A model generated the notes under the pieces. The model was not told where the DNA came from. It ran no database searches and worked only from the letters and a program-made list of their open reading frames with translations. Shown here piece by piece: positions 1,876 through 63,687 of a DNA stretch of 64,000 bases. Source of the DNA: Candidatus Aalborgicola danicus (lineage in GTDB: Bacteria > Pseudomonadota > Gammaproteobacteria > Burkholderiales > Burkholderiaceae_C); NCBI GenBank assembly GCA_016703945.1, contig JADJBC010000041.1:131558-195557 (forward strand). Direction: 5' to 3'. Made by a program: the position numbers and the translations under genes. How positions within the stretch are numbered: the stretch's first letter is position 1; the number at the start of each line of letters is the position of its first letter.

Positions 1876-4032
1876 TCAGTTGCAGCCAGACTGGGCCTTC
1901 CAGATCGCCAGATCACCCAGATTCACCACCCCTTTGCCGGACGACGCGGCGAAGTAGTACAGGCTGTCATCAACACTGGAGCTGGCGAGGAAGGTATTGG
2001 TGGCGGGGTAGTAGCGGTAGTAATAGGGTGCCAGATCACCGGCCGCAGCACCGGCCAGCGGAAACGCACTGGGCACGCTACGCTCGCCCCACGCAAAAAT
2101 GCAATCCGACAGGCTGCCACTGGTCACCATGGTGAGCGGGCGGCTGGGCTCCTCAATGGGCATGCCGTCGCGCCAGAGCTGGGCGCGCAACTTGATGGGT
2201 CGTGCACTATTGGGCGGGAGTGTCAGCGCGGGTGCGGTGTTGGCACTGGTGTCGGCTATGGGCAGGCTTTGAATGAAACCGGTGCCACTTTGGAACCAGC
2301 GAACTTGCAAGCCCGTATTGGCCCCGGCCACGCTGGCGGCAGTGTGGCTGGAAACCATGCGCTTCTGGGTGTTTTGGGCGATGCGCGTGGCCGCCGGAGC
2401 CAAACCGCTGGCGTCTATGGCCTGCGAGATGGACAGGGTGTAGAACCCGCCCGCTGTGGGATTCGGCGGCCTGAGTACATAGAAGCTACGCCAGGTTTCA
2501 CTGTCAGACGACGTGCGTTGGGCGCAGCCTGTGCCAGTCACCCGAAGCAGTGGCCCCACCGCCGTGCCATTGGCATAGACGCCATTGAGCTGGAACTGCC
2601 CGCCCTCGCTGCACAGTTTCAGCGTTGCGGTACCCGCCAATGGCGTAGCCAGTGTGATGGAGTCCACATCATCCGCCTGTGCGGCGACGGGCTCGCTCAA
2701 TTGACCCCGGATGGTGAAGGGCAGCGCCGCCACCTTGGTCCCCGCATTCAGATCGTTCGAGTAGTCACCACCTGCGCTGTCGGCTTCCTTGACGACCACG
2801 TTGTCCACCAGGCCGTCGCAGTCATTGTCCAGACCATCGGCAATTTCGGTTTTCCCCGGTGCGATGGCTGCGTTGTCGTCGCGGCAATCCACAAATCGGT
2901 TGGAGCCGTCGTTGTCGCTGTCCAGACAACCCGGGAATGGCGTTGGATAGGCTGCAGCTCCGGCCAGACCCGGGCCCTGGTACCACTTGAATTGGCTGGC
3001 AATACAGCGCGTGTCCTTCTGTGTCACTTTGGCTAATGACAGCAGCATGGCATCACTGGTCTCTTGCGGCGTGTCATAAAACACACCCGCCAGCGAGCTC
3101 GACACGCCGTCCGCCAGCCAGGCCTTGACTTGCGCGCCTGTCATTTGCTGCGCCACCACAGTAAAGAAGCTGCCGACCAGGTAACGGGCCTCGGCGCTGG
3201 CGCAGGCTGGCACATCGTTGGGTGCAGCGGCGCAGTCGGCCCAGGTCAGCGCCGGGTTGGACAGAAAGGGCTTCCAATAGGTGCCCAACCAGTCGCTCAG
3301 CACCACATTCGGCCGTTTGATTTGCGAGCCGCCGTCTGCCATCTTGGTCTGCACCCGCGCATACCACTCCTGCAACACCGTGGTCCAGTTGTGGCTGGGG
3401 TCGGGGCCATAGGCCCAGGCCGACATCACATCAAAGTTGTGCGCCAGTTCGTGCACAAAAACATTGGTCAGAATATCGTCGTCCAGGCCGATTTCATCCA
3501 GCACGGCATTGCTGTATTCGGTGGAATCCCCCGGGGCAAAGGCCAGACCATAGAAGTTGCTCGGTTCATTGGGCAATATGGCAAATACCTGTTTGCCCCG
3601 TGGGTCACTTTGCAGCGTCGGAGCCCAGCCCAGCAATTCCTTGTAACTGGCGTACAGCATGTCCAGCCGGTCTACCAGGGTTTGGATCCGCACCGCATTC
3701 AGCTTGGCGCTTCTGGGGTGCACCGTGGGGATCAAAAGGGTGACGGCAGCGCCGTCGTAACGCGAGACCGTGAAGGTTTGCACTGGTGTGCTGAAGGTGG
3801 TGTAGCTGATGGTTTCGCCCCAGCACGGCGAACAGGCGGTGGTACCAAAGTTGATGCGGGACGCAGCACTGGTACGGGTCTGAACGTGCGCCTGGGGCTG
3901 TCGCACGTAGTCCGGAGTAGCGCCAGGTTGCGGCAACCGGGGTACGGCGTTGGCACCAGCCACGCCACAGACCAGCAGAAATGCCATGCAAAAGATGGGC
4001 AGTACCCGACGGATGGCTTGGCAAGTGGGCAT
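1876..4032 (-). CDS. Secreted HExxH metalloprotease-like protein with MopE-type DNDCDG metal-binding motif
   Basis: 718 aa. N-terminal signal peptide (MAFLLVCGVAGANA). VHELAHNFD is an HExxH zincin motif. DSDNDGSNRFVDCRDDNAAIAPGKTEIADGLDNDCDGLVDN matches the Cys/Asp-rich repeat seen in MopE-like copper-binding proteins. Confidence 0.75.
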   Translation of the reverse strand: MPTCQAIRRVLPIFCMAFLLVCGVAGANAVPRLPQPGATPDYVRQPQAHVQTRTSAASRINFGTTACSPCWGETISYTTFSTPVQTFTVSRYDGAAVTLLIPTVHPRSAKLNAVRIQTLVDRLDMLYASYKELLGWAPTLQSDPRGKQVFAILPNEPSNFYGLAFAPGDSTEYSNAVLDEIGLDDDILTNVFVHELAHNFDVMSAWAYGPDPSHNWTTVLQEWYARVQTKMADGGSQIKRPNVVLSDWLGTYWKPFLSNPALTWADCAAAPNDVPACASAEARYLVGSFFTVVAQQMTGAQVKAWLADGVSSSLAGVFYDTPQETSDAMLLSLAKVTQKDTRCIASQFKWYQGPGLAGAAAYPTPFPGCLDSDNDGSNRFVDCRDDNAAIAPGKTEIADGLDNDCDGLVDNVVVKEADSAGGDYSNDLNAGTKVAALPFTIRGQLSEPVAAQADDVDSITLATPLAGTATLKLCSEGGQFQLNGVYANGTAVGPLLRVTGTGCAQRTSSDSETWRSFYVLRPPNPTAGGFYTLSISQAIDASGLAPAATRIAQNTQKRMVSSHTAASVAGANTGLQVRWFQSGTGFIQSLPIADTSANTAPALTLPPNSARPIKLRAQLWRDGMPIEEPSRPLTMVTSGSLSDCIFAWGERSVPSAFPLAGAAAGDLAPYYYRYYPATNTFLASSSVDDSLYYFAASSGKGVVNLGDLAIWKAQSGCN

Positions 4033-52030: not shown

Positions 52031-52636
52031 TCAGTTCTTGGCGCAATGTTTGCGCCATTGCTCAGGCGTAATACGGTGCAGGATATGCCTTTTGAGCGGC
52101 CAGTCTGTCGGCACGCGCGGGTGGTCAAAGTCGGCCGCCTCGTCGCGCACCATGCCAATGCGCTCCATGACGCTGTGCGATGGCGTGTTGGTGGTTACGG
52201 ACATGGCGACGACCTGCGGCAGCTCCAGGTGTGTGAACGCGAAGGCCAGCGCGGCCGTGGCGCCTTCGGTGGCGTAGCCCTGGTGCCAGGTCGCTGGGGC
52301 GAGGCGCCAGCCGATCTCTACGGCGGGCATCCACGGTGCTTCATAACCGGGCAGGCTCAGGCCCACAAAACCAGAGAATGGATGGACGCCAGGAATCTCC
52401 AGCGCCCACATGCCCCAGCCGCGTTGCGTGATGCTGGCGCGTATGCGGTCAGCCTCGGCCTGTGCTTCTGCGCGGTTCAGCACGGCGGGGAAAAAGCGGC
52501 GGACCTCGGGGTCCGCATTCATCGCCGCCCAGGCGTCGATGTCGCTGTCCTTCCACTGGCGCAGCAATACACGCGGCGTGCGCAATTCGATTGGCGAGGT
52601 AAAGGTGCGCAGCACCAACGTGGGCACACCGTGCAT
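52031..52636 (-). CDS. GNAT-family N-acetyltransferase (RimJ/RimL-like)
   Basis: LRTPRVLLRQWKDSD...VEIGWRLAPATWHQGYATEGATAAL...NTPSHSVMERIGM. Confidence 0.85.
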   Translation of the reverse strand: MHGVPTLVLRTFTSPIELRTPRVLLRQWKDSDIDAWAAMNADPEVRRFFPAVLNRAEAQAEADRIRASITQRGWGMWALEIPGVHPFSGFVGLSLPGYEAPWMPAVEIGWRLAPATWHQGYATEGATAALAFAFTHLELPQVVAMSVTTNTPSHSVMERIGMVRDEAADFDHPRVPTDWPLKRHILHRITPEQWRKHCAKN

Positions 52637-53244
52637 TACTTGAGCAGCCCTTCCGCTTTCATAGCGGCCACCACGGCAGGACGCGCCGCCACACGGGCGC
52701 GGTAGGCGACGATGTTGGCGTACGGTGACAAATCCAGCCCCACGTACTGCGCCCAGTTGGTAACGGTAAACAGGTAGCCGTCAGCCACCGTGAAGCTGTC
52801 ACCCATCAGGTATTGTTTGTCTGCCAGTTCGCCGTCCACCCAATTCAGGCGTCCTTGCAGTTTGGTGATGGCAGCTGCCTTGGTCTCGGCGGGAGTGGCG
52901 GGGTCAAACAGCGGCGAGAAGCTTCGGTGCAGCTCGGTGCCGATAAAGGTCAACCATTCCTGCAGCTTGTAGCGCGCATAAGTTCCGTTGACGGGTGCCA
53001 GGTTTTTGGCCGGCACCTGGTCTGCAATGTATTGCACGATGGCCGGGCCTTCGTGCAGAGATCGGCCGTCGTCCAGCGTCAGGTAAGGCACGTAGCCCAG
53101 CGGGTTGATGGTGTAGTAGTCAGTGCCGTCGGGCAGCTTGTGCGTTTTGGTGGGTGCGGGGATGGCTTCAAAGGCCAGGCCAGCCTCGTGCAGAGCGATG
53201 TGGGGAGACAGGGAGCATGCGCCGGGGGAGTAATACAGCTTCAT
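52636..53244 (-). CDS. Glutathione S-transferase
   Basis: MKLYYSPGACSLSPHIALHEAGL...INPLGYVPYL...GDSFTVADGYLFTV. The 5' extension of tracked ORF 52636..53517 reads through repeat DNA and was rejected. Confidence 0.9.
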   Translation of the reverse strand: MKLYYSPGACSLSPHIALHEAGLAFEAIPAPTKTHKLPDGTDYYTINPLGYVPYLTLDDGRSLHEGPAIVQYIADQVPAKNLAPVNGTYARYKLQEWLTFIGTELHRSFSPLFDPATPAETKAAAITKLQGRLNWVDGELADKQYLMGDSFTVADGYLFTVTNWAQYVGLDLSPYANIVAYRARVAARPAVVAAMKAEGLLK

Positions 53245-53331
53245 GGGATTCCTTGCTTCTTTTTGACAAATGAATGAGAGGCAGATACTACCTCTCGCAT
53301 TGCTTTTGCGCTGCGTTTGGGTTATAGGCCC

Positions 53332-53426
53332 GCAGCAGGTATGGGGTGGCTGTTCTGCTCCGTGTCCCCCGCCCGCTGCGGGCTCCTCCTTGACCTGCGC
53401 AGAACAGCCACCCCATGCCTGCTGCT
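53332..53426 (+). repeat. Family B nested palindrome, copy a (core forward)
   Basis: Outer arms GCAGCAGGTATGGGGTGGCTGTTCTGC / GCAGAACAGCCACCCCATGCCTGCTGC (26 of 27 complementary) flank the core TCCGTGTCCCCCGC-[ccgctgcgg]-GCTCCTCCTTGACCTGC. Confidence 0.8.
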
Positions 53427-53530
53427 CGAACCTTTGCTCGCAGCAGTTGGTCGTCGAAATCGCCTTGGTCGGTGGAGCGAGATGACGGACTTCTGTCTTC
53501 AGATCAGTACAAACCAAGCCCCGCTGTATT

Positions 53531-53619
53531 CATCGGGTAGTGGGTTTTGCGCAGGTCAAGGAGGAGCAGAGGGCTTCGGCCCTCTGCGGGGGACACGGAG
53601 CAAAACCCGCTACCCGATG
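53531..53619 (-). repeat. Family B nested palindrome, copy b (core reverse)
   Basis: Outer arms CATCGGGTAGTGGGTTTTGC / GCAAAACCCGCTACCCGATG. The reverse complement carries the same core TTTTGCTCCGTGTCCCCCGC-[agagggccgaagccctct]-GCTCCTCCTTGACCTGCGCAAAA. Confidence 0.8.
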
Positions 53620-53682
53620 GATACGAACGTCACGTTGGCACTCACCCCCGGCCTGCCGCTCGACAGCTCGGGGCTTCCCCTT

Positions 53683-55302
53683 TTAGGCCAAAGCCACTTC
53701 CTTGCCGGTCAGGCGTTTGGCCAATCCCTGTGCCAGCCGATTCACATTGCCATAGATGGACAACTGCGGGTTGGCGCCAATGCTGGTGGGGAAGATCGAG
53801 CCATCGTGGATGGACAGATTCTCCAGTTGCCAGTGCACACCGTCGGGGCGGGTGACACCGCGTTTGTCGTCCGCAGACAGACCGCAACCGCCCATCACGT
53901 GGGCGCTGCCGATTTTGGTCAGCAACGGCTTCATCGGCAGAGCATTGATGGCGGCCTTGGTGTCGGCCCAATTCGTCGTGCCCGTGCCCATTTCATGGCC
54001 GGGGTAAACCGTTTTGGCACCGGCTTCGAACTGGATTTCGGCCATGGCCAGCATGGAACGGCGGGCGCCTTCCATCAGGTAGTCGGTCAGCGGGTAGTCC
54101 AGCAAGGGTGAGCCGTTGCCGCGCAACTCGACCTTGCCACCGACCGCTTGGTCATGGAAGCCGTCGCGCATCAGTGCCAGCATGACGTTGGCATGGGGGT
54201 ATTGGCGGAACAGCTGGGCTTGTTTCTCGCCAAAGCCGGGCAGGTTGGCGCCAAAAAATACCGGGTGCAGCGGTGCGACTTCGAGCTTGAAGCCAATCGG
54301 TCCGTCGATCGCCTGGGTATTCAGGAAATGGTCCGAGTAAATGGATTGAGGTGCACCGTCCCACGCGGACACATTGTTGGCCATGATGGCCGTAGTGATG
54401 GCCACCGGGTGCAAAAAGGTGCGGGTGCCCAGGCGTTTGTGCGGGTCAGGGGCGCCCGAGCGCATCAGCAGGGCCGGCGAGTTGATCGATCCACCGGCCA
54501 GTACATAATGTTTTGCTATGATTTGTGTAGGTGGCCCCGCAGTTTTTACGGGGGCTGCATTGGGTTTTACTGCTATACAACTGAGGCTCTGGATGCGTCC
54601 GTTGCTGATTTCGAACTTCTCGGCCCGGGTCTCCACCAACAGGGTGGCGCCGCCGTCCAGCGCAAACGGAATGGTGGTGACCAGCATGGACTGTTTCGCG
54701 TTGGTCGGGCAGCCCATGCCGCAGGAACCCAGGTTGTAACAACCCTTGACGTTGCGCGGAATCACCTCGGCCTTGATACCCAGCTTGGCGGCACCCCGGC
54801 GCAGCAACTCGTTGTTTTCGTTGGGTGGGGTTTGCCAGGGCGCGATATTCAGGCGCTGTTCGGCTTGCTGGAAAAACGGTGCCAGGGCATCGGGGTTGTA
54901 GTCGGTTAGGCCAAATTGTTCTTGCCAGAATTTGAGCGTGGCAGCCGGGGTGCGAAACGAGCTGGTCCAGTTGACGGTGGTGGTGCCGCCCACGCTGCGC
55001 CCTTGCAGGATGGTGATGCCTTTGTCCTTGGTTTGGCGGCCAGCGGCCTCCTGGTACAGCGATGCATAGGCTTCGGGTTCGCGCTGTTTGAAGTCGCTGC
55101 TGCTTTTGAGCTGGCCTTCTTCGATGATGACAACCTTGAGGCCGGCCTTGGTCAACAGCTCGGCGGTGATGCCGGCCCCCGCGCCTGAGCCGATGATGGC
55201 CACGTCACAGGTGATGCTGGTCGGGAGCGCCGCGTGTGCGCCGCCCAATACTTTCCAACCGCGGGCGAGTCCCTCTTTGATGGGGTCCGTTAAGCTGCTC
55301 AT
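53683..55302 (-). CDS. GMC-family FAD-dependent oxidoreductase
   Basis: DVAIIGSGAGAGITAELL (FAD GxGxxG). C-terminal GMC blocks (HVMGGCGL...). 539 aa. Confidence 0.9.
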   Translation of the reverse strand: MSSLTDPIKEGLARGWKVLGGAHAALPTSITCDVAIIGSGAGAGITAELLTKAGLKVVIIEEGQLKSSSDFKQREPEAYASLYQEAAGRQTKDKGITILQGRSVGGTTTVNWTSSFRTPAATLKFWQEQFGLTDYNPDALAPFFQQAEQRLNIAPWQTPPNENNELLRRGAAKLGIKAEVIPRNVKGCYNLGSCGMGCPTNAKQSMLVTTIPFALDGGATLLVETRAEKFEISNGRIQSLSCIAVKPNAAPVKTAGPPTQIIAKHYVLAGGSINSPALLMRSGAPDPHKRLGTRTFLHPVAITTAIMANNVSAWDGAPQSIYSDHFLNTQAIDGPIGFKLEVAPLHPVFFGANLPGFGEKQAQLFRQYPHANVMLALMRDGFHDQAVGGKVELRGNGSPLLDYPLTDYLMEGARRSMLAMAEIQFEAGAKTVYPGHEMGTGTTNWADTKAAINALPMKPLLTKIGSAHVMGGCGLSADDKRGVTRPDGVHWQLENLSIHDGSIFPTSIGANPQLSIYGNVNRLAQGLAKRLTGKEVALA

Positions 55303-59024: not shown

Positions 59025-60510
59025 ACTGGGACTTCCCCCGGTGTCAAGCAATCGCTTGCGTTTGGATATCCCTGGAGACGGTATTTTTTGCACTGGCGTG
59101 AACTGGATTTGCGAGTAAATCAGAAACAGACTGCACATCTACTGTCGGTCTTATTGCACCGTTGACCTTGATCCTGGTGCGGACCCAGATACGAACCGCT
59201 CAGCGGGGCTCCAATCACGCTACGTGGACATTGTCAAAACGCCACTGGGGGCTAGTCGAGCTTGCCCGCTGCCGGTCTGACCTGTTTATTGCATCTTTCG
59301 ATTTACGCCTTGCAAGAAACTATCTATTCAGTTACCCAAATTGTCGTCACCGGCTAGCCATTCACTATCGCCGGTCGCACGCTCACATGGCGCGCATCGA
59401 ATGGCTTACCACGTGTAAACACGGCCCAGAGGATGCGCGCATTCTTGTTGGCCAGCGCTACAGCTGCCTTTTGCCAACCCGTCTTTTCGCGCAACTGATG
59501 CGCCCACTTGGAAATGGGATCATCGCGCCGATGCGCCGTAAATACTGCGGCCTTGGCTCCTTGAATGAGAAGGGATCGCAGGTAGGTGTCCCCATGTTTT
59601 GTGATGCCGCCCAGGTTGCTTTTGCCGCCGCTGGAGTTCTGCCGAGGCGTCAGCCCCATCCAGGCGCCAAACTGTGCGCCATTCTTGAACTGTTTGAAGT
59701 CACCTACCGTGGCAATGAGTGCGGAGGCCCCAAGCGGCCCAACGCCTATGAGTTGCTCGGCCTGTCGAACCTGCTCATTGGCTTTGAGATGGGCAGCAAT
59801 GCGTGCATCGCACCAGCTCAGGTGTGCATCAAGCTCCTGCCACTGCTCCCAGGCCCGCTGCAGTGCCAGGCGGGCCAGAGTTGGAAGTTCGTTACTGGCA
59901 TCTTCAATAACGTCGGGCAAGGCGTGGTGCAGGATCTCGGGCTTTTGCGCTAACACAATGCCAAACTCGCCCAAAAGACCCCGAATGCGATTGGTACAGG
60001 CGATGCGCTCCTTCTTGAAGCCTTCGCGCAAGCGGTGAATGCACAGCATGCTTTGTTGTTCTACGCTCTTGATGGGTACGAAATGCATTTGCGGACGTGA
60101 TGCAGCCTCGCAAATGGCCGCCGCATCATTGGCGTCGTTCTTTCCGTGCTTGCCCTGCATCCGGTAGGGTGCAACCAGATGGGCAGCGATGATGCGCGCA
60201 TCCAACCCAAGCGCGACCAGCTTGCGTGCCCAATAATGTGCGCTGGAGCTGGCCTCCATGACCACCATGCAACCAGCAGGCAATTGAGCGCACCAAGCCG
60301 TGAATTTGTCGCGTGGCAGCGCTCGGCCAACAACCCGCTGATCAGCTCTATCCACTCCGTGAACTTGAATGACCCGCTTTGCCAGATCAACGCCGACTCG
60401 TGTAACCTCATGCATGGGACTTCTCCTTCCAAAGGTTTTAGATTGACTTTTCAAAACCAATCTTGGCACTCAATGCCGTTACCAGGAAGTGGGAAGTCCC
60501 TTCGTATTCA
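59025..60510 (-). mobile_element. IS110-family insertion sequence (IS1111-like layout), inserted in a family C repeat
   Basis: The flanks 59016-59024 (tagccccct) and 60511 onward (cgctccaccgctacgcggg...) together reconstitute a family C repeat, by comparison with copy 1. Subterminal inverted repeats are GGGACTTCCC (59028-59037) and GGGAAGTCCC (60491-60500). The 3' non-coding arm is about 330 bp and the 5' arm about 95 bp. Ends are uncertain by about 10 bp. Confidence 0.7.
59354..60415 (-). CDS. IS110-family DEDD transposase/recombinase
   Basis: MHEVTRVGVDLAKRVIQVHGVD (DEDD N-terminal domain) and LIGVGPLGASALIATVGDFKQFKNGAQFGAWMGLTPRQNSSGGKSNLGGITKHGDTYLR (Transposase_20-type C-terminal domain with catalytic Ser region). 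AAGGAG RBS. Confidence 0.9.
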   Translation of the reverse strand: MHEVTRVGVDLAKRVIQVHGVDRADQRVVGRALPRDKFTAWCAQLPAGCMVVMEASSSAHYWARKLVALGLDARIIAAHLVAPYRMQGKHGKNDANDAAAICEAASRPQMHFVPIKSVEQQSMLCIHRLREGFKKERIACTNRIRGLLGEFGIVLAQKPEILHHALPDVIEDASNELPTLARLALQRAWEQWQELDAHLSWCDARIAAHLKANEQVRQAEQLIGVGPLGASALIATVGDFKQFKNGAQFGAWMGLTPRQNSSGGKSNLGGITKHGDTYLRSLLIQGAKAAVFTAHRRDDPISKWAHQLREKTGWQKAAVALANKNARILWAVFTRGKPFDARHVSVRPAIVNG

Positions 60511-60596: not shown

Positions 60597-61178
60597 TTAT
60601 TGCGCTAGCCGCTCGGCCGCCCACAAAACCTGCTTGACCACCTCCAACACGCTGTCGCGCTGAGCCGGCAGCTGGAGTTCGCCGTTGTCGTCAAAGGCGT
60701 CTCCGGCCCGGCCAAGCGCAAACTGCTTGGGCGCGATCCAGCACTGGGATAAGGTCATCAGCGGGTTCAAGTGGCTTAGCGACCGCAGGCCCCCTAAGGC
60801 GCCGGGTGATGCGCTCATCAGGCCGACGACCTTGCCGCGCATGGAGCGGTCACCGTCGGACCAAATGGGGTCGCCTTTGACCGGGCTGCTGATCCAGTCG
60901 ATGGTGTTTTTCAGCAGGCCGGTGTAGGAGCCGTTGTACTCGGGTGAGCAGATGATCCAGGCCGGGTGGTCATAGGCGATGGCCTTGAGGCGCATCACGT
61001 CGGCCGGTGTGCCCCGGGCTTCCAGGTCGGCGTTGTACAGGGGGACGTCGAAGTCGCTCAATTCGATGTGGGTGACTTCCGCGCCCTCGGCCCGTGCCAT
61101 GGCGGCGGCGGCGTTGGCGAGGCGGCGGTTGAAGGAGAGTTGGCGGGTGCTACCCGCGAAGATGAGTAGTTTGGTCAT
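60597..61178 (-). CDS. NADPH-dependent FMN reductase
   Basis: MTKLLIFAGSTRQLSFNRRLA...SPEYNGSYTGLLKNTIDW. The 5' extension of the tracked ORF reads through repeat DNA and was rejected. Confidence 0.88.
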   Translation of the reverse strand: MTKLLIFAGSTRQLSFNRRLANAAAAMARAEGAEVTHIELSDFDVPLYNADLEARGTPADVMRLKAIAYDHPAWIICSPEYNGSYTGLLKNTIDWISSPVKGDPIWSDGDRSMRGKVVGLMSASPGALGGLRSLSHLNPLMTLSQCWIAPKQFALGRAGDAFDDNGELQLPAQRDSVLEVVKQVLWAAERLAQ

Positions 61179-61260
61179 GGGGCTATTGTCACCAAGTTGT
61201 GGTTTTCCCCCCATACCAGTTACCCCGGGATCAGTCGGTATATTGCGCTCGCCCGCGACA

Positions 61261-61346
61261 GGCAAGGCGCGGGTTTTTTTTGCTCCGTGTCCCCCGCCCG
61301 CTGCGCGGGCTCCTCCTTTACCTGCGCAAAACACCCATGCCTTGCC
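61261..61346 (+). repeat. Family B nested palindrome, copy c (core forward)
   Basis: ggcaaggcgcgggtttTTTTGCTCCGTGTCCCCCGC-[ccgctgcgcgg]-GCTCCTCCTTTACCTGCGCAAAAcacccatgccttgcc. Confidence 0.8.
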
Positions 61347-61412
61347 TGTCGCTGGAGGTTGGTGAAGGACGGGCTGTTTGTATTTTCGGAGCCTGGCCAC
61401 CTGCTACGCCAG

Positions 61413-61503
61413 ATCGGTTGGGCTGTGCGTTTTGCGTAGGTCAAGGGGGAGGCCAAGCTTGCTTGGCCGGAGGACACGCAGCAAAACGTGCAGCCCAACC
61501 GAT
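61413..61503 (-). repeat. Family B nested palindrome, copy d (core reverse, more diverged)
   Basis: Outer arms GATCGGTTGGGCTGTGCGTTTTGC / GCAAAACGTGCAGCCCAACCGATC. The reverse-complement core is TTTTGCTGCGTGTCCTCCGG-[ccaagcaagcttgg]-CCTCCCCCTTGACCTACGCAAAA. Confidence 0.75.
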
Positions 61504-61620
61504 CCCCCACAGCAGCAACCCAACCCAACGAATTCTCCCAACGTGCCAAAAAACCAGGCACCCGGTAAAATCGCTGGCTACACCACACTGGGCGCACGCG
61601 GATTTGCCTTGCGCCCCCGA

Positions 61621-63686
<2,066 letters not shown>

Positions 63687-63687
<1 letters not shown>

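Follow-up and report, generated by a model that had tools for sequence, protein, structure and literature searches.

REP units are G+C-rich imperfect palindromes of 21-65 nt (PMC3184786) that are defined by a conserved GTAG or CGTC tetranucleotide head (PMC3733652), and the RAYT gene is flanked by its repeats (PMC5581495). Effects at the RNA level have been proposed for ERIC, and the Correia elements possess promoters, an IHF site, a TA duplication and conserved 26-bp terminal inverted repeats (TIRs) (PMC3184786). How families of non-coding repeats last in bacterial genomes is an unsettled question; they may be parasites, host tools or the partners of domesticated transposases. In a 64,000-nt stretch of Candidatus Aalborgicola danicus (contig JADJBC010000041.1, positions 131,558 to 195,557; hereafter the window), nested palindromes with a conserved centre had been noticed between the GST and GMC-oxidoreductase genes from the letters alone, a reading referred to here as the original prediction. 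These palindromes were followed up, and the hairpin family to which they belong is real and apparently undescribed.

The single strand on which the core of this family is purine-rich (the purine sense) is kept foldable and carries an almost invariant, structured purine loop; the copies stand, usually head to head, in inverted doublets of two arm types and are retained at orthologous sites. We give about an even chance to the reading that they form a chromosomal, vertically retained family of REP/BIME-like intergenic hairpin repeats of ~95-125 nt in the Comamonadaceae (Rhodoferax, Curvibacter, Hydrogenophaga and their relatives) and in some Rhodocyclaceae, which is read as a single strand, with DNA as the favoured substrate.

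The two opposite-oriented elements between the GST and GMC-oxidoreductase genes were confirmed at 53332-53425 (copy A) and 53526-53624 (copy B). Their stems lie 100 bp apart rather than the 104 bp originally given, and the second element ends at 53624 and not at 53619. Copy A has its purine-rich, better-folding sense on the minus strand and alpha-type arms; its outer stem pairs 53332-53358 with 53399-53425 around a core at 53359-53398, and the covariance model scored it at 103 bits on the minus strand versus 37.5 bits on the plus strand. Copy B lies on the plus strand (95.4 bits versus 26.5 bits on the minus strand) and has beta-type arms, of which 53526-53550 pairs with 53600-53624 around a 5' loop (53551-53566), an apical hairpin with a UUCG loop (53567-53586) and a 3' loop (53587-53599). 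The spacer at 53426-53525 (100 bp, no strand) is faced by the 5' ends of both purine-sense hairpins. The outer arms are 27 nt long and 96% complementary in copy A, and 25 nt long and 92% complementary in copy B. The centres of both copies (40-49 nt) are non-palindromic apart from a short G+C hairpin, and their cores, TCCGTGTCCCCCGC and GCTCCTCCTTGACCTGC, are letter-identical in opposite orientation; the original prediction had called them conserved. The TTTTGC/GCAAAA flanks that it ascribed to each copy do not hold for copy A, which has TTCTGC/GCAGAA. The core-to-core distance of this pair, 148 nt, was the same in L040 and L030, with weak sequence similarity.

A second pair lies further along the window. 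It consists of copy C (about 61252-61355, minus strand, alpha-type arms, 92.2 bits on that strand), a spacer at 61356-61400 (no strand) that is partly conserved among three genera, and copy D (about 61401-61515, plus strand, beta-type arms, 89.2 bits on that strand). Its cores, at 61284-61325 and 61436-61477, are one exact and one diverged; copy D has the variant GGGGGA...GGAGGA and a stem with a tandem U·G/G·U, which is kept in orthologues. The outer stems of the four window copies measure ~25-35 bp. By chance, 0.02 occurrences of the combined core pattern would be expected per window, and the folding of all four copies relative to shuffled sequence gave z-scores from -5.5 to -10.9. A covariance model search of the 64 kb returned exactly four copies, A to D, the number that had been claimed.

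Further copies were found well beyond the window. A degenerate core pattern scan of a one-genome-per-species collection matched at least 118 stretches, and a second pattern scan of metagenome contigs matched at least 120 contigs, giving at least 238 further loci in total. Among the matches listed were Rhodoferax (many), Curvibacter, Hydrogenophaga, Polaromonas, Roseateles, Macromonas and Ca. Aalborgicola, together with unnamed Comamonadaceae and Burkholderiales metagenome-assembled genomes (MAGs), several Rhodocyclaceae MAGs, one Janthinobacterium MAG and freshwater metagenomes. The copy number was estimated at roughly 100 per genome. When the whole window was compared with Rfam 15, no family reached the gathering threshold, and the E-value mode returned only sub-threshold chance matches, microRNA-precursor-like and others; the original prediction had likewise recognised no named motif. 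A full-text literature search with words from the core sequence retrieved only unrelated primer matches, and two REP/RAYT surveys make no mention of the Comamonadaceae. Plasmids and phages were searched with the consensus core, the element arms being variable; no copy was met among 72,556 plasmids or 50,697 phage records, and the core pattern occurred in 1 of 2.9 million viral contigs (IMG/VR).

The helices of the family co-vary around the conserved core, as had been predicted. In an alignment of 127 copies, 91.2% of the cells at the 34 proposed stem pairs were paired, compared with 37-41% when the partner was slid by 1-3 columns, and double-sided changes in stem cells numbered 1237 versus 371 in shuffles. 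An independent metagenome set of 132 copies gave 90.5% versus 37-40% slid, in an alignment that was model-fitted and so leans towards structure. Stem conservation was best next to the core, at GCGTTYTGC, and a mid-stem G-C pair 13 bp below the loop was present in 85 of the 93 non-redundant copies.

The stems also tell which strand folds. In the pyrimidine-rich orientation used by the original prediction, the non-Watson-Crick stem positions comprised 203 A·C and 35 G·T oppositions (raw count); read on the other, purine-rich strand, the former become G·U/T wobbles, and the functional strand is thus the reverse complement of the one first written. After relatives were down-weighted, the bias stood at 29 versus 8 (cluster-weighted) or at 73 versus 32 (counted once per cluster and position), approximately 3:1 after redundancy correction. 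It was found in every gene context: 22 versus 3 between tandem genes where the purine sense is the mRNA sense, 40 versus 12 where it is antisense, 31 versus 4 between convergent genes and 16 versus 8 between divergent ones. Furthermore, folding was more stable in the purine sense for 204 of 220 copies under RNA parameters (mean difference 7.2 kcal/mol) and for 213 of 220 under DNA parameters (mean difference 4.6 kcal/mol). Copies A and C have their purine sense on the minus strand and copies B and D on the plus, which makes the pairs divergent, and not convergent as originally described. A symmetric cruciform cannot make such a bias, because every transition in it yields one wobble and one mismatch.

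In the purine sense, the core reads GYAGGUMAAGGRGGAG, followed by the apical hairpin and then by CGGRGGACAYGRAG. Watson-Crick covariation was seen at columns 45/97 (C-G 148, U-A 29, U·G 30, C·A 29) and 47/95 (G-C 280, A-U 14, one G·U), and columns 55/89 showed a purine-for-purine swap (A,G 260; G,A 28; A,A 7; G,G 4). The pairs G48-C93 and U49-A92 are invariant, and the stem carries on through alternating G·A oppositions; the remainder of the core is an all-purine asymmetric loop with AAGGRGGA opposite GGRG. Each side of the core has one GGRGGA hexamer, with A on one side and G on the other. The core "loop" is partly structured, with pairs 45-97 and 47-95, the covarying A·G/G·A and, likely, further G·A pairs. 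The core strands had been called non-complementary, which fails for columns 45-97 and 47-95 and for GGU/ACC, which can pair. A kink-turn was considered and rejected, since closing by C50-G91 with an AAG bulge puts G·G rather than G·A at 1b·1n and A55·G89 swaps to G·A. Loop-loop pairing of two copies in one transcript was dropped as well, copy D having the variant 55/89 state and its partner C not. Readings of the loop as a putative G-quadruplex (GGNGG x2) or as Hfq (ARN)n were also considered. Depending on the copy, 8 to 38 bp separate the two halves of the core. The apical loops were triloops closed by C-G in 134 of 176 copies, mostly GCA (49), GAA (31) and AAA (30). The d(C-GNA-G) loop is an unusually stable DNA hairpin. 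A variant class of core with 4-nt insertions on both sides, CAGCGAAGTMAAGG ... GACATGAGCGGAGG, was also noticed; it is always the partner of a canonical copy and is kept across orthologues, being the second copy of a carboxylase-operon doublet in L002, L019, L056, L060, L076, L078, L096 and L155.

Copies come in doublets. When two of them lay less than 400 bp apart, 69 of the 74 such cases had the (-,+) arrangement in the purine sense, and in the independent metagenome set the same was found for 26 of the 28 adjacent copies. Doublets hold about half of all copies, always combine two different arm types and have a spacer of 45-100 bp; the alpha type has the stem base CAGCRRCAGG and the beta type GATCGG or ATCAGTCGGG. 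Greedy clustering of the arm sequences gave subfamilies that recur at many unrelated loci: arms of the type GGAGGCTGGGCGGCAGAGCGTTCTGC were met in 17 distinct gene neighbourhoods, those of copy A's alpha type in 6, and the Rhodocyclaceae types in 9 and 5. The whole hairpin of ~100 nt is therefore the repeated unit. The four window copies belong to four different arm subfamilies. The arms are self-complementary, as originally stated, but are not truly copy-specific, and the subfamilies and the mid-stem G-C pair make them to some extent part of a longer conserved repeat, a result that the original prediction had counted against itself. In one Rhodocyclaceae-type genome, paralogous doublets were ~97-100% identical in arms and core and ~65% in their spacers, and their apical stems differed, with compensation.

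Two observations on unusual copies stand beside these. In the Rhodocyclaceae-type subfamily (L016, L022, L023, L043, L048, L061, L064, L111 and L114), near-identical arms occur at many loci and the apical hairpin is long, GGCGGAC...GTCCGCC with a loop of 10-12 nt; 'Ignavibacteria' MAG contigs (JBLNBJ01) also carry this subfamily and are probably mis-binned betaproteobacterial DNA. At L212 (3073-3656), a perfect inverted duplicate has identical arms ~370 bp apart, unlike the usual hetero-type doublet, and is flanked by GGTTGC/GGTGC(G/T) simple repeats.

Retention was followed at two orthologous sites. The second pair of the window was also found in two other genera (L030 and L042), again with the FMN reductase gene on one side and mnmG on the other; there, MnmG is 93% and 89% identical to that of the window and the neighbouring gene 88% and 71%. 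The cores of these orthologues are almost identical and the beta arm nearly so, the tandem U·G/G·U included; the alpha arm has been largely replaced with pairing kept, and the DNA on its left is unalignable. L030 also has a doublet placed after rsmG, at a point past where the window ends. A second orthologous doublet lies between same-strand carboxyltransferase-beta and biotin-carboxylase-alpha genes at 24 loci. Across 13 genomes at this carboxylase locus, third-codon-position identity was 0.58-0.63 and arm identity 0.68-0.74 with the arms still paired; the arms therefore drift nearly neutrally in sequence. Double changes were seen at no fewer than 8 stem positions, and most intermediates were C·A/A·C when read as mRNA, equivalent to G·U in the purine sense (26 versus 4-11). 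These G·U intermediates prevail although the purine sense of the carboxylase copy is antisense to the operon. No alignment was possible for two further candidate filled/empty pairs, L031/L181 and L090/L212. At the carboxylase loci (e.g. L078 at ~3650-3660), TTGGTAT(T/G)C is kept among orthologues ~10 nt past the stem base of the first copy and is a poor -10 match in either direction. At one of them (L049, 5962-6520) the first copy is tandemly duplicated, and ~30-bp tandem repeats GGCGAGCTCAGCAATTCACAACACGCCCAT stand before the downstream gene.

Signals of transcription were sought around the hairpins. The promoter scans gave no sigma-70-like promoter in either window spacer. Among the 93 non-redundant copies, no position carried information over the 125 nt that precede the purine-sense hairpin, nor at the stem base and outside it, and no REP-type GTAG/CGTC head was met there. 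No U-tract follows the hairpin in either sense, no terminator was called at the elements, and the 3' flanks are not T-rich. Two readings made by eye were discarded: a sigma-54-like GG-N10-GC in the arm, where the spacing is 11, and TTGACC as a -35 box, for which there is no conserved -10. A predicted mnmG promoter, GTGCCA-17-TAAAAT (61543-61571, plus strand), is conserved in three genera, and copy D lies upstream of it. The copies are intergenic without gene-class preference, the hairpins standing at a median of ~39 bp after stop codons, and doublets between convergent, tandem and divergent genes occurred in the ratio 8:28:9. Single copies showed no orientation preference relative to genes (15 versus 12, de-duplicated) and no significant one relative to local GC skew (14 versus 23, p=0.19).

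The purine-rich single strand would fold into a rod made of a ~27-bp stem, the structured internal loop and a short apical hairpin, and we infer that a trans-acting factor reads the invariant loop, for which the helices would serve as a scaffold. Each doublet would offer one purine-sense hairpin per DNA strand, readable whichever strand is exposed or transcribed; because the doublet carries one on each, such a factor would meet a hairpin on either strand. The family may have been dispersed long ago and kept in place since by purifying selection on folding. As to the nature of the strand, single-stranded DNA is somewhat favoured over RNA, since the wobble bias is independent of context, transcription signals were not found, C(GNA)G triloops dominate and the organisation is analogous to REP/BIME. 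We tentatively raise the possibility that the loop on its rod is the recognition module of a conserved Burkholderiales factor for single-stranded nucleic acid, which would make the family either a RAYT-independent, domesticated doublet element or a new, widespread class of structured RNA. A loop-reading factor, if it exists, should be easily fished out with hairpin oligonucleotides.

Several points weigh against the proposal of a single strand read as DNA. The core conservation of the seed copies is partly a matter of ascertainment, the loci having been found by the core pattern; the partner copies, which were not picked in this way, have conserved cores too. Template switching within quasi-palindromes could mimic compensatory change without selection. 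Several copies lie inside operons and are necessarily transcribed, so that a role as RNA is possible, and some apical loops are UUCG or CUUG, typical of RNA. Neither G·T tolerance nor A·G covariation can separate DNA from RNA, and the reading factor itself is putative, one that we infer. Finally, no RAYT/HUH gene and no recurrent non-housekeeping neighbour was seen in 1.6 Mb around ~330 copies, and a tblastn search with the E. coli RayT gave no hit at E<0.1, neither in a first 0.9 Mb nor in the full 1.6 Mb around these copies. With a RAYT gene flanked by two of ~100 copies per genome, a few RayT matches would be expected in a sample of 1.6 Mb; this is moderate evidence by which the canonical REPIN-RAYT arrangement is disfavoured, not disproved.

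A serious competitor, though one that we hold to be less likely, is a structured non-coding RNA, in which the purine-sense hairpin acts in transcripts as a cis element of operon mRNAs or as a decoy or sponge. The loop would then present AAGGAGGAG, a near-perfect Shine-Dalgarno sequence, and GGA motifs to the ribosome or to an RNA-binding protein. RNA motifs typically show G·U-rich covarying helices and an A·G/G·A swap of this kind, and UUCG and CUUG tetraloops occur in some copies, but triloops dominate the apical loops and Rfam gave no match. Many copies lie between co-directional genes and are thus transcribed, as in the carboxylase and mnmG-rsmG-region operons, and a transcript across a doublet always carries one purine-sense hairpin. 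However, the wobble bias does not change where the genes run against the purine sense (40 versus 12), the best-conserved operon-internal copy included, and single copies are indifferent to gene orientation (15 versus 12). Neither a promoter-like signal at a fixed upstream distance nor a terminator accompanies the hairpin, and copy D stands upstream of the predicted mnmG promoter. A small RNA that titrates CsrA/RsmA was rejected in particular: GGA motifs are present (UCAAGGAGGA, ACACGGAGCA), but one of them lies in a covarying helix, and no promoter or terminator was found.

It is improbable that the elements are inert, decaying miniature inverted-repeat transposable elements (MITEs) or foldback elements without present function, whose arms are TIRs and whose compensation comes from shared ancestry and template-switch correction. 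Such an origin would suit the arm subfamilies dispersed at unrelated loci (one type in 17 neighbourhoods), the near-identical paralogous doublets of one Rhodocyclaceae-type genome, the intergenic copies without gene-class preference and the perfect inverted duplicate at L212. However, the strand-specific G·U bias is not expected of symmetric processes, and the orthologous copies are retained across genera near third-codon saturation with paired stems and a nearly invariant loop. In the Rhodocyclaceae-type genome itself, the arms and core are ~97-100% identical while the spacers are only ~65% so. No target-site duplication was seen at the unit boundaries, nor was a transposase or an autonomous parent; between distant (-,+) copies, where such a parent was looked for, the enclosed genes were htpX, rsmG, mnmG and cob genes. 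Recurrent neighbour genes were housekeeping only, reflecting orthology, and the plasmid and phage records held no copy, with one match in IMG/VR. Membership of the MITEs was therefore rejected on the arms, which vary and co-vary, on the absence of a target-site duplication at the boundaries and on the housekeeping neighbours and enclosed genes. The view that the family is not a drifting MITE stands, a structure-reading factor giving a better account of the conserved core and co-varying helices.

The original prediction had also considered a small element that inserts into hairpin loops, that is, a core unit of ~50-75 bp with a short stem of its own entering pre-existing hairpins, so that the outer arms would be host sequence. 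We regard this as very improbable. Its one case, which is ambiguous, is an orthologous site with a doublet in L155 (3282-3695) and only a plain hairpin in L044 (1794-1850) and L176 (996-1050). That hairpin has a 15-bp stem and a GCGCAGCG centre, and its arms, TTGGGGTCGGGTT and GACCTGACCCCAA, resemble the outermost arms of the first L155 copy. Internal deletion explains this single case equally well, and the plain hairpin is not a repeated family in the 1.6 Mb. Conservation does peak beside the core, at GCGTTYTGC; however, the arms share a subfamily consensus at unrelated loci and the near-universal mid-stem G-C pair, so they are part of the repeat, and no empty 25-bp hairpins were found within the window. 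That a nucleoid or regulatory protein binds the element as a DNA duplex or as a symmetric cruciform is scarcely tenable: the core does have a pair of similar half-sites (GGACACGGA and GGTCAAGGA) as well as two GGRGGA hexamers, and the positions are intergenic, one divergent promoter region included, but the core halves lie anywhere between 8 and 38 bp apart, covarying helices would serve no purpose in a duplex site, and a cruciform predicts no strand bias where about 3-6:1 was observed. Of the original alternatives, structured RNA or protein-recognised cruciform, the idea of a factor that reads structure is thus preferred and the symmetric cruciform, unable to give strand asymmetry, is not.

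As to the surroundings of the copies in the window, the first pair is flanked by the GST gene (52636-53244, minus strand) and the GMC oxidoreductase gene (53683-55302, minus strand), and the second by the FMN reductase gene (60597-61178, minus strand) and mnmG (61630-63687, plus strand). The only terminator-like call in the GST/GMC intergenic region is a small hairpin with a T-rich tail at 53276-53296 (minus strand), between copy A and the GST start codon. Approximately 800 bp from the second pair, just past the 3' end of the FMN reductase gene, lies an IS110-family transposase gene (59354-60469, minus strand; Pfam DEDD_Tnp_IS110 and Transposase_20), whose G+C content at third codon positions is below that of its neighbours. 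Some IS110/IS1111 members target REP-like hairpins; at the ends of this gene, no disrupted copy of the hairpin element was seen. The longest mnmG open reading frame (ORF), 61378-63687, passes through copy D and would be called wrongly, the start being at 61630. At present the hairpin elements inflate ORF calls in this way, and the covariance model obtained here lets annotators mark them in Comamonadaceae genomes and MAGs.

Compared with the described systems, the family shares most with REP/BIME/REPIN. Like these, it consists of G+C-rich extragenic imperfect palindromes, often in operons or after genes, and is chromosomal, passes down vertically and is seldom met on plasmids (PMC3184786, PMC5581495). 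Shared too are the inverted doublets, in which two unit types enclose a less conserved spacer (here 69 of the 74 adjacent copies) and the strand-specific logic of a single-strand hairpin. The units are, in contrast to REP, 95-125 nt long with a non-palindromic core of 40-60 nt; their most conserved part is the internal loop rather than the stem or a GTAG/CGTC head, their arms have diverged into many subfamilies, and no RAYT gene was found in the 1.6 Mb sampled around ~330 copies. To our knowledge, REPs are not conserved across families, unlike the core of the hairpin family here. The attC sites of integrons are recognised as a folded single strand, with conserved structure, variable sequence and one strand in use. 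The present family resembles them in conserving structure over sequence and in single-strand use, but its stems are much longer, and attC was rejected since the stem bases do not fit RYYYAAC/GTTRRRY, the doublets are inverted rather than direct cassette arrays and no integrase is a neighbour. With intrinsic terminators and SPRITE-like repeats it has in common a stable G+C-rich hairpin at a median of ~39 bp after stop codons; an intrinsic terminator was rejected, there being no U-tract in either sense and some copies lying in divergent promoter regions. Like Correia/NEMIS, a betaproteobacterial MITE of Neisseria, it belongs to a betaproteobacterium and is a hairpin-forming repeat of ~100-150 bp that lies between genes, but its arms vary, and no target-site duplication, IHF site or promoter signal was found.

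With the ERIC/IRU elements of the Enterobacteriaceae, the family shares an imperfect palindrome of ~100-130 nt that is intergenic, co-transcribed and of one consensus across genera (PMC3184786). It differs from them in host clade and has no sequence relationship to them; the MITE-type TIR/TA features of ERIC (PMC3184786) were not seen, and the doublet rule and the invariant purine internal loop belong to the present family. With its invariant loop set against free helices, a strand marker in the G·U/T wobbles and copies that can be traced at the same loci across genera, it is a clean test case for the persistence of such repeats. In kind it is a structured intergenic palindromic repeat, and the chance that it marks a hairpin-reading system not recognised before is a real one. 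Its closest relatives are REP/BIME/REPIN in organisation and genomic behaviour, and ERIC in size and cross-genus conservation (PMC3184786, PMC5581495).

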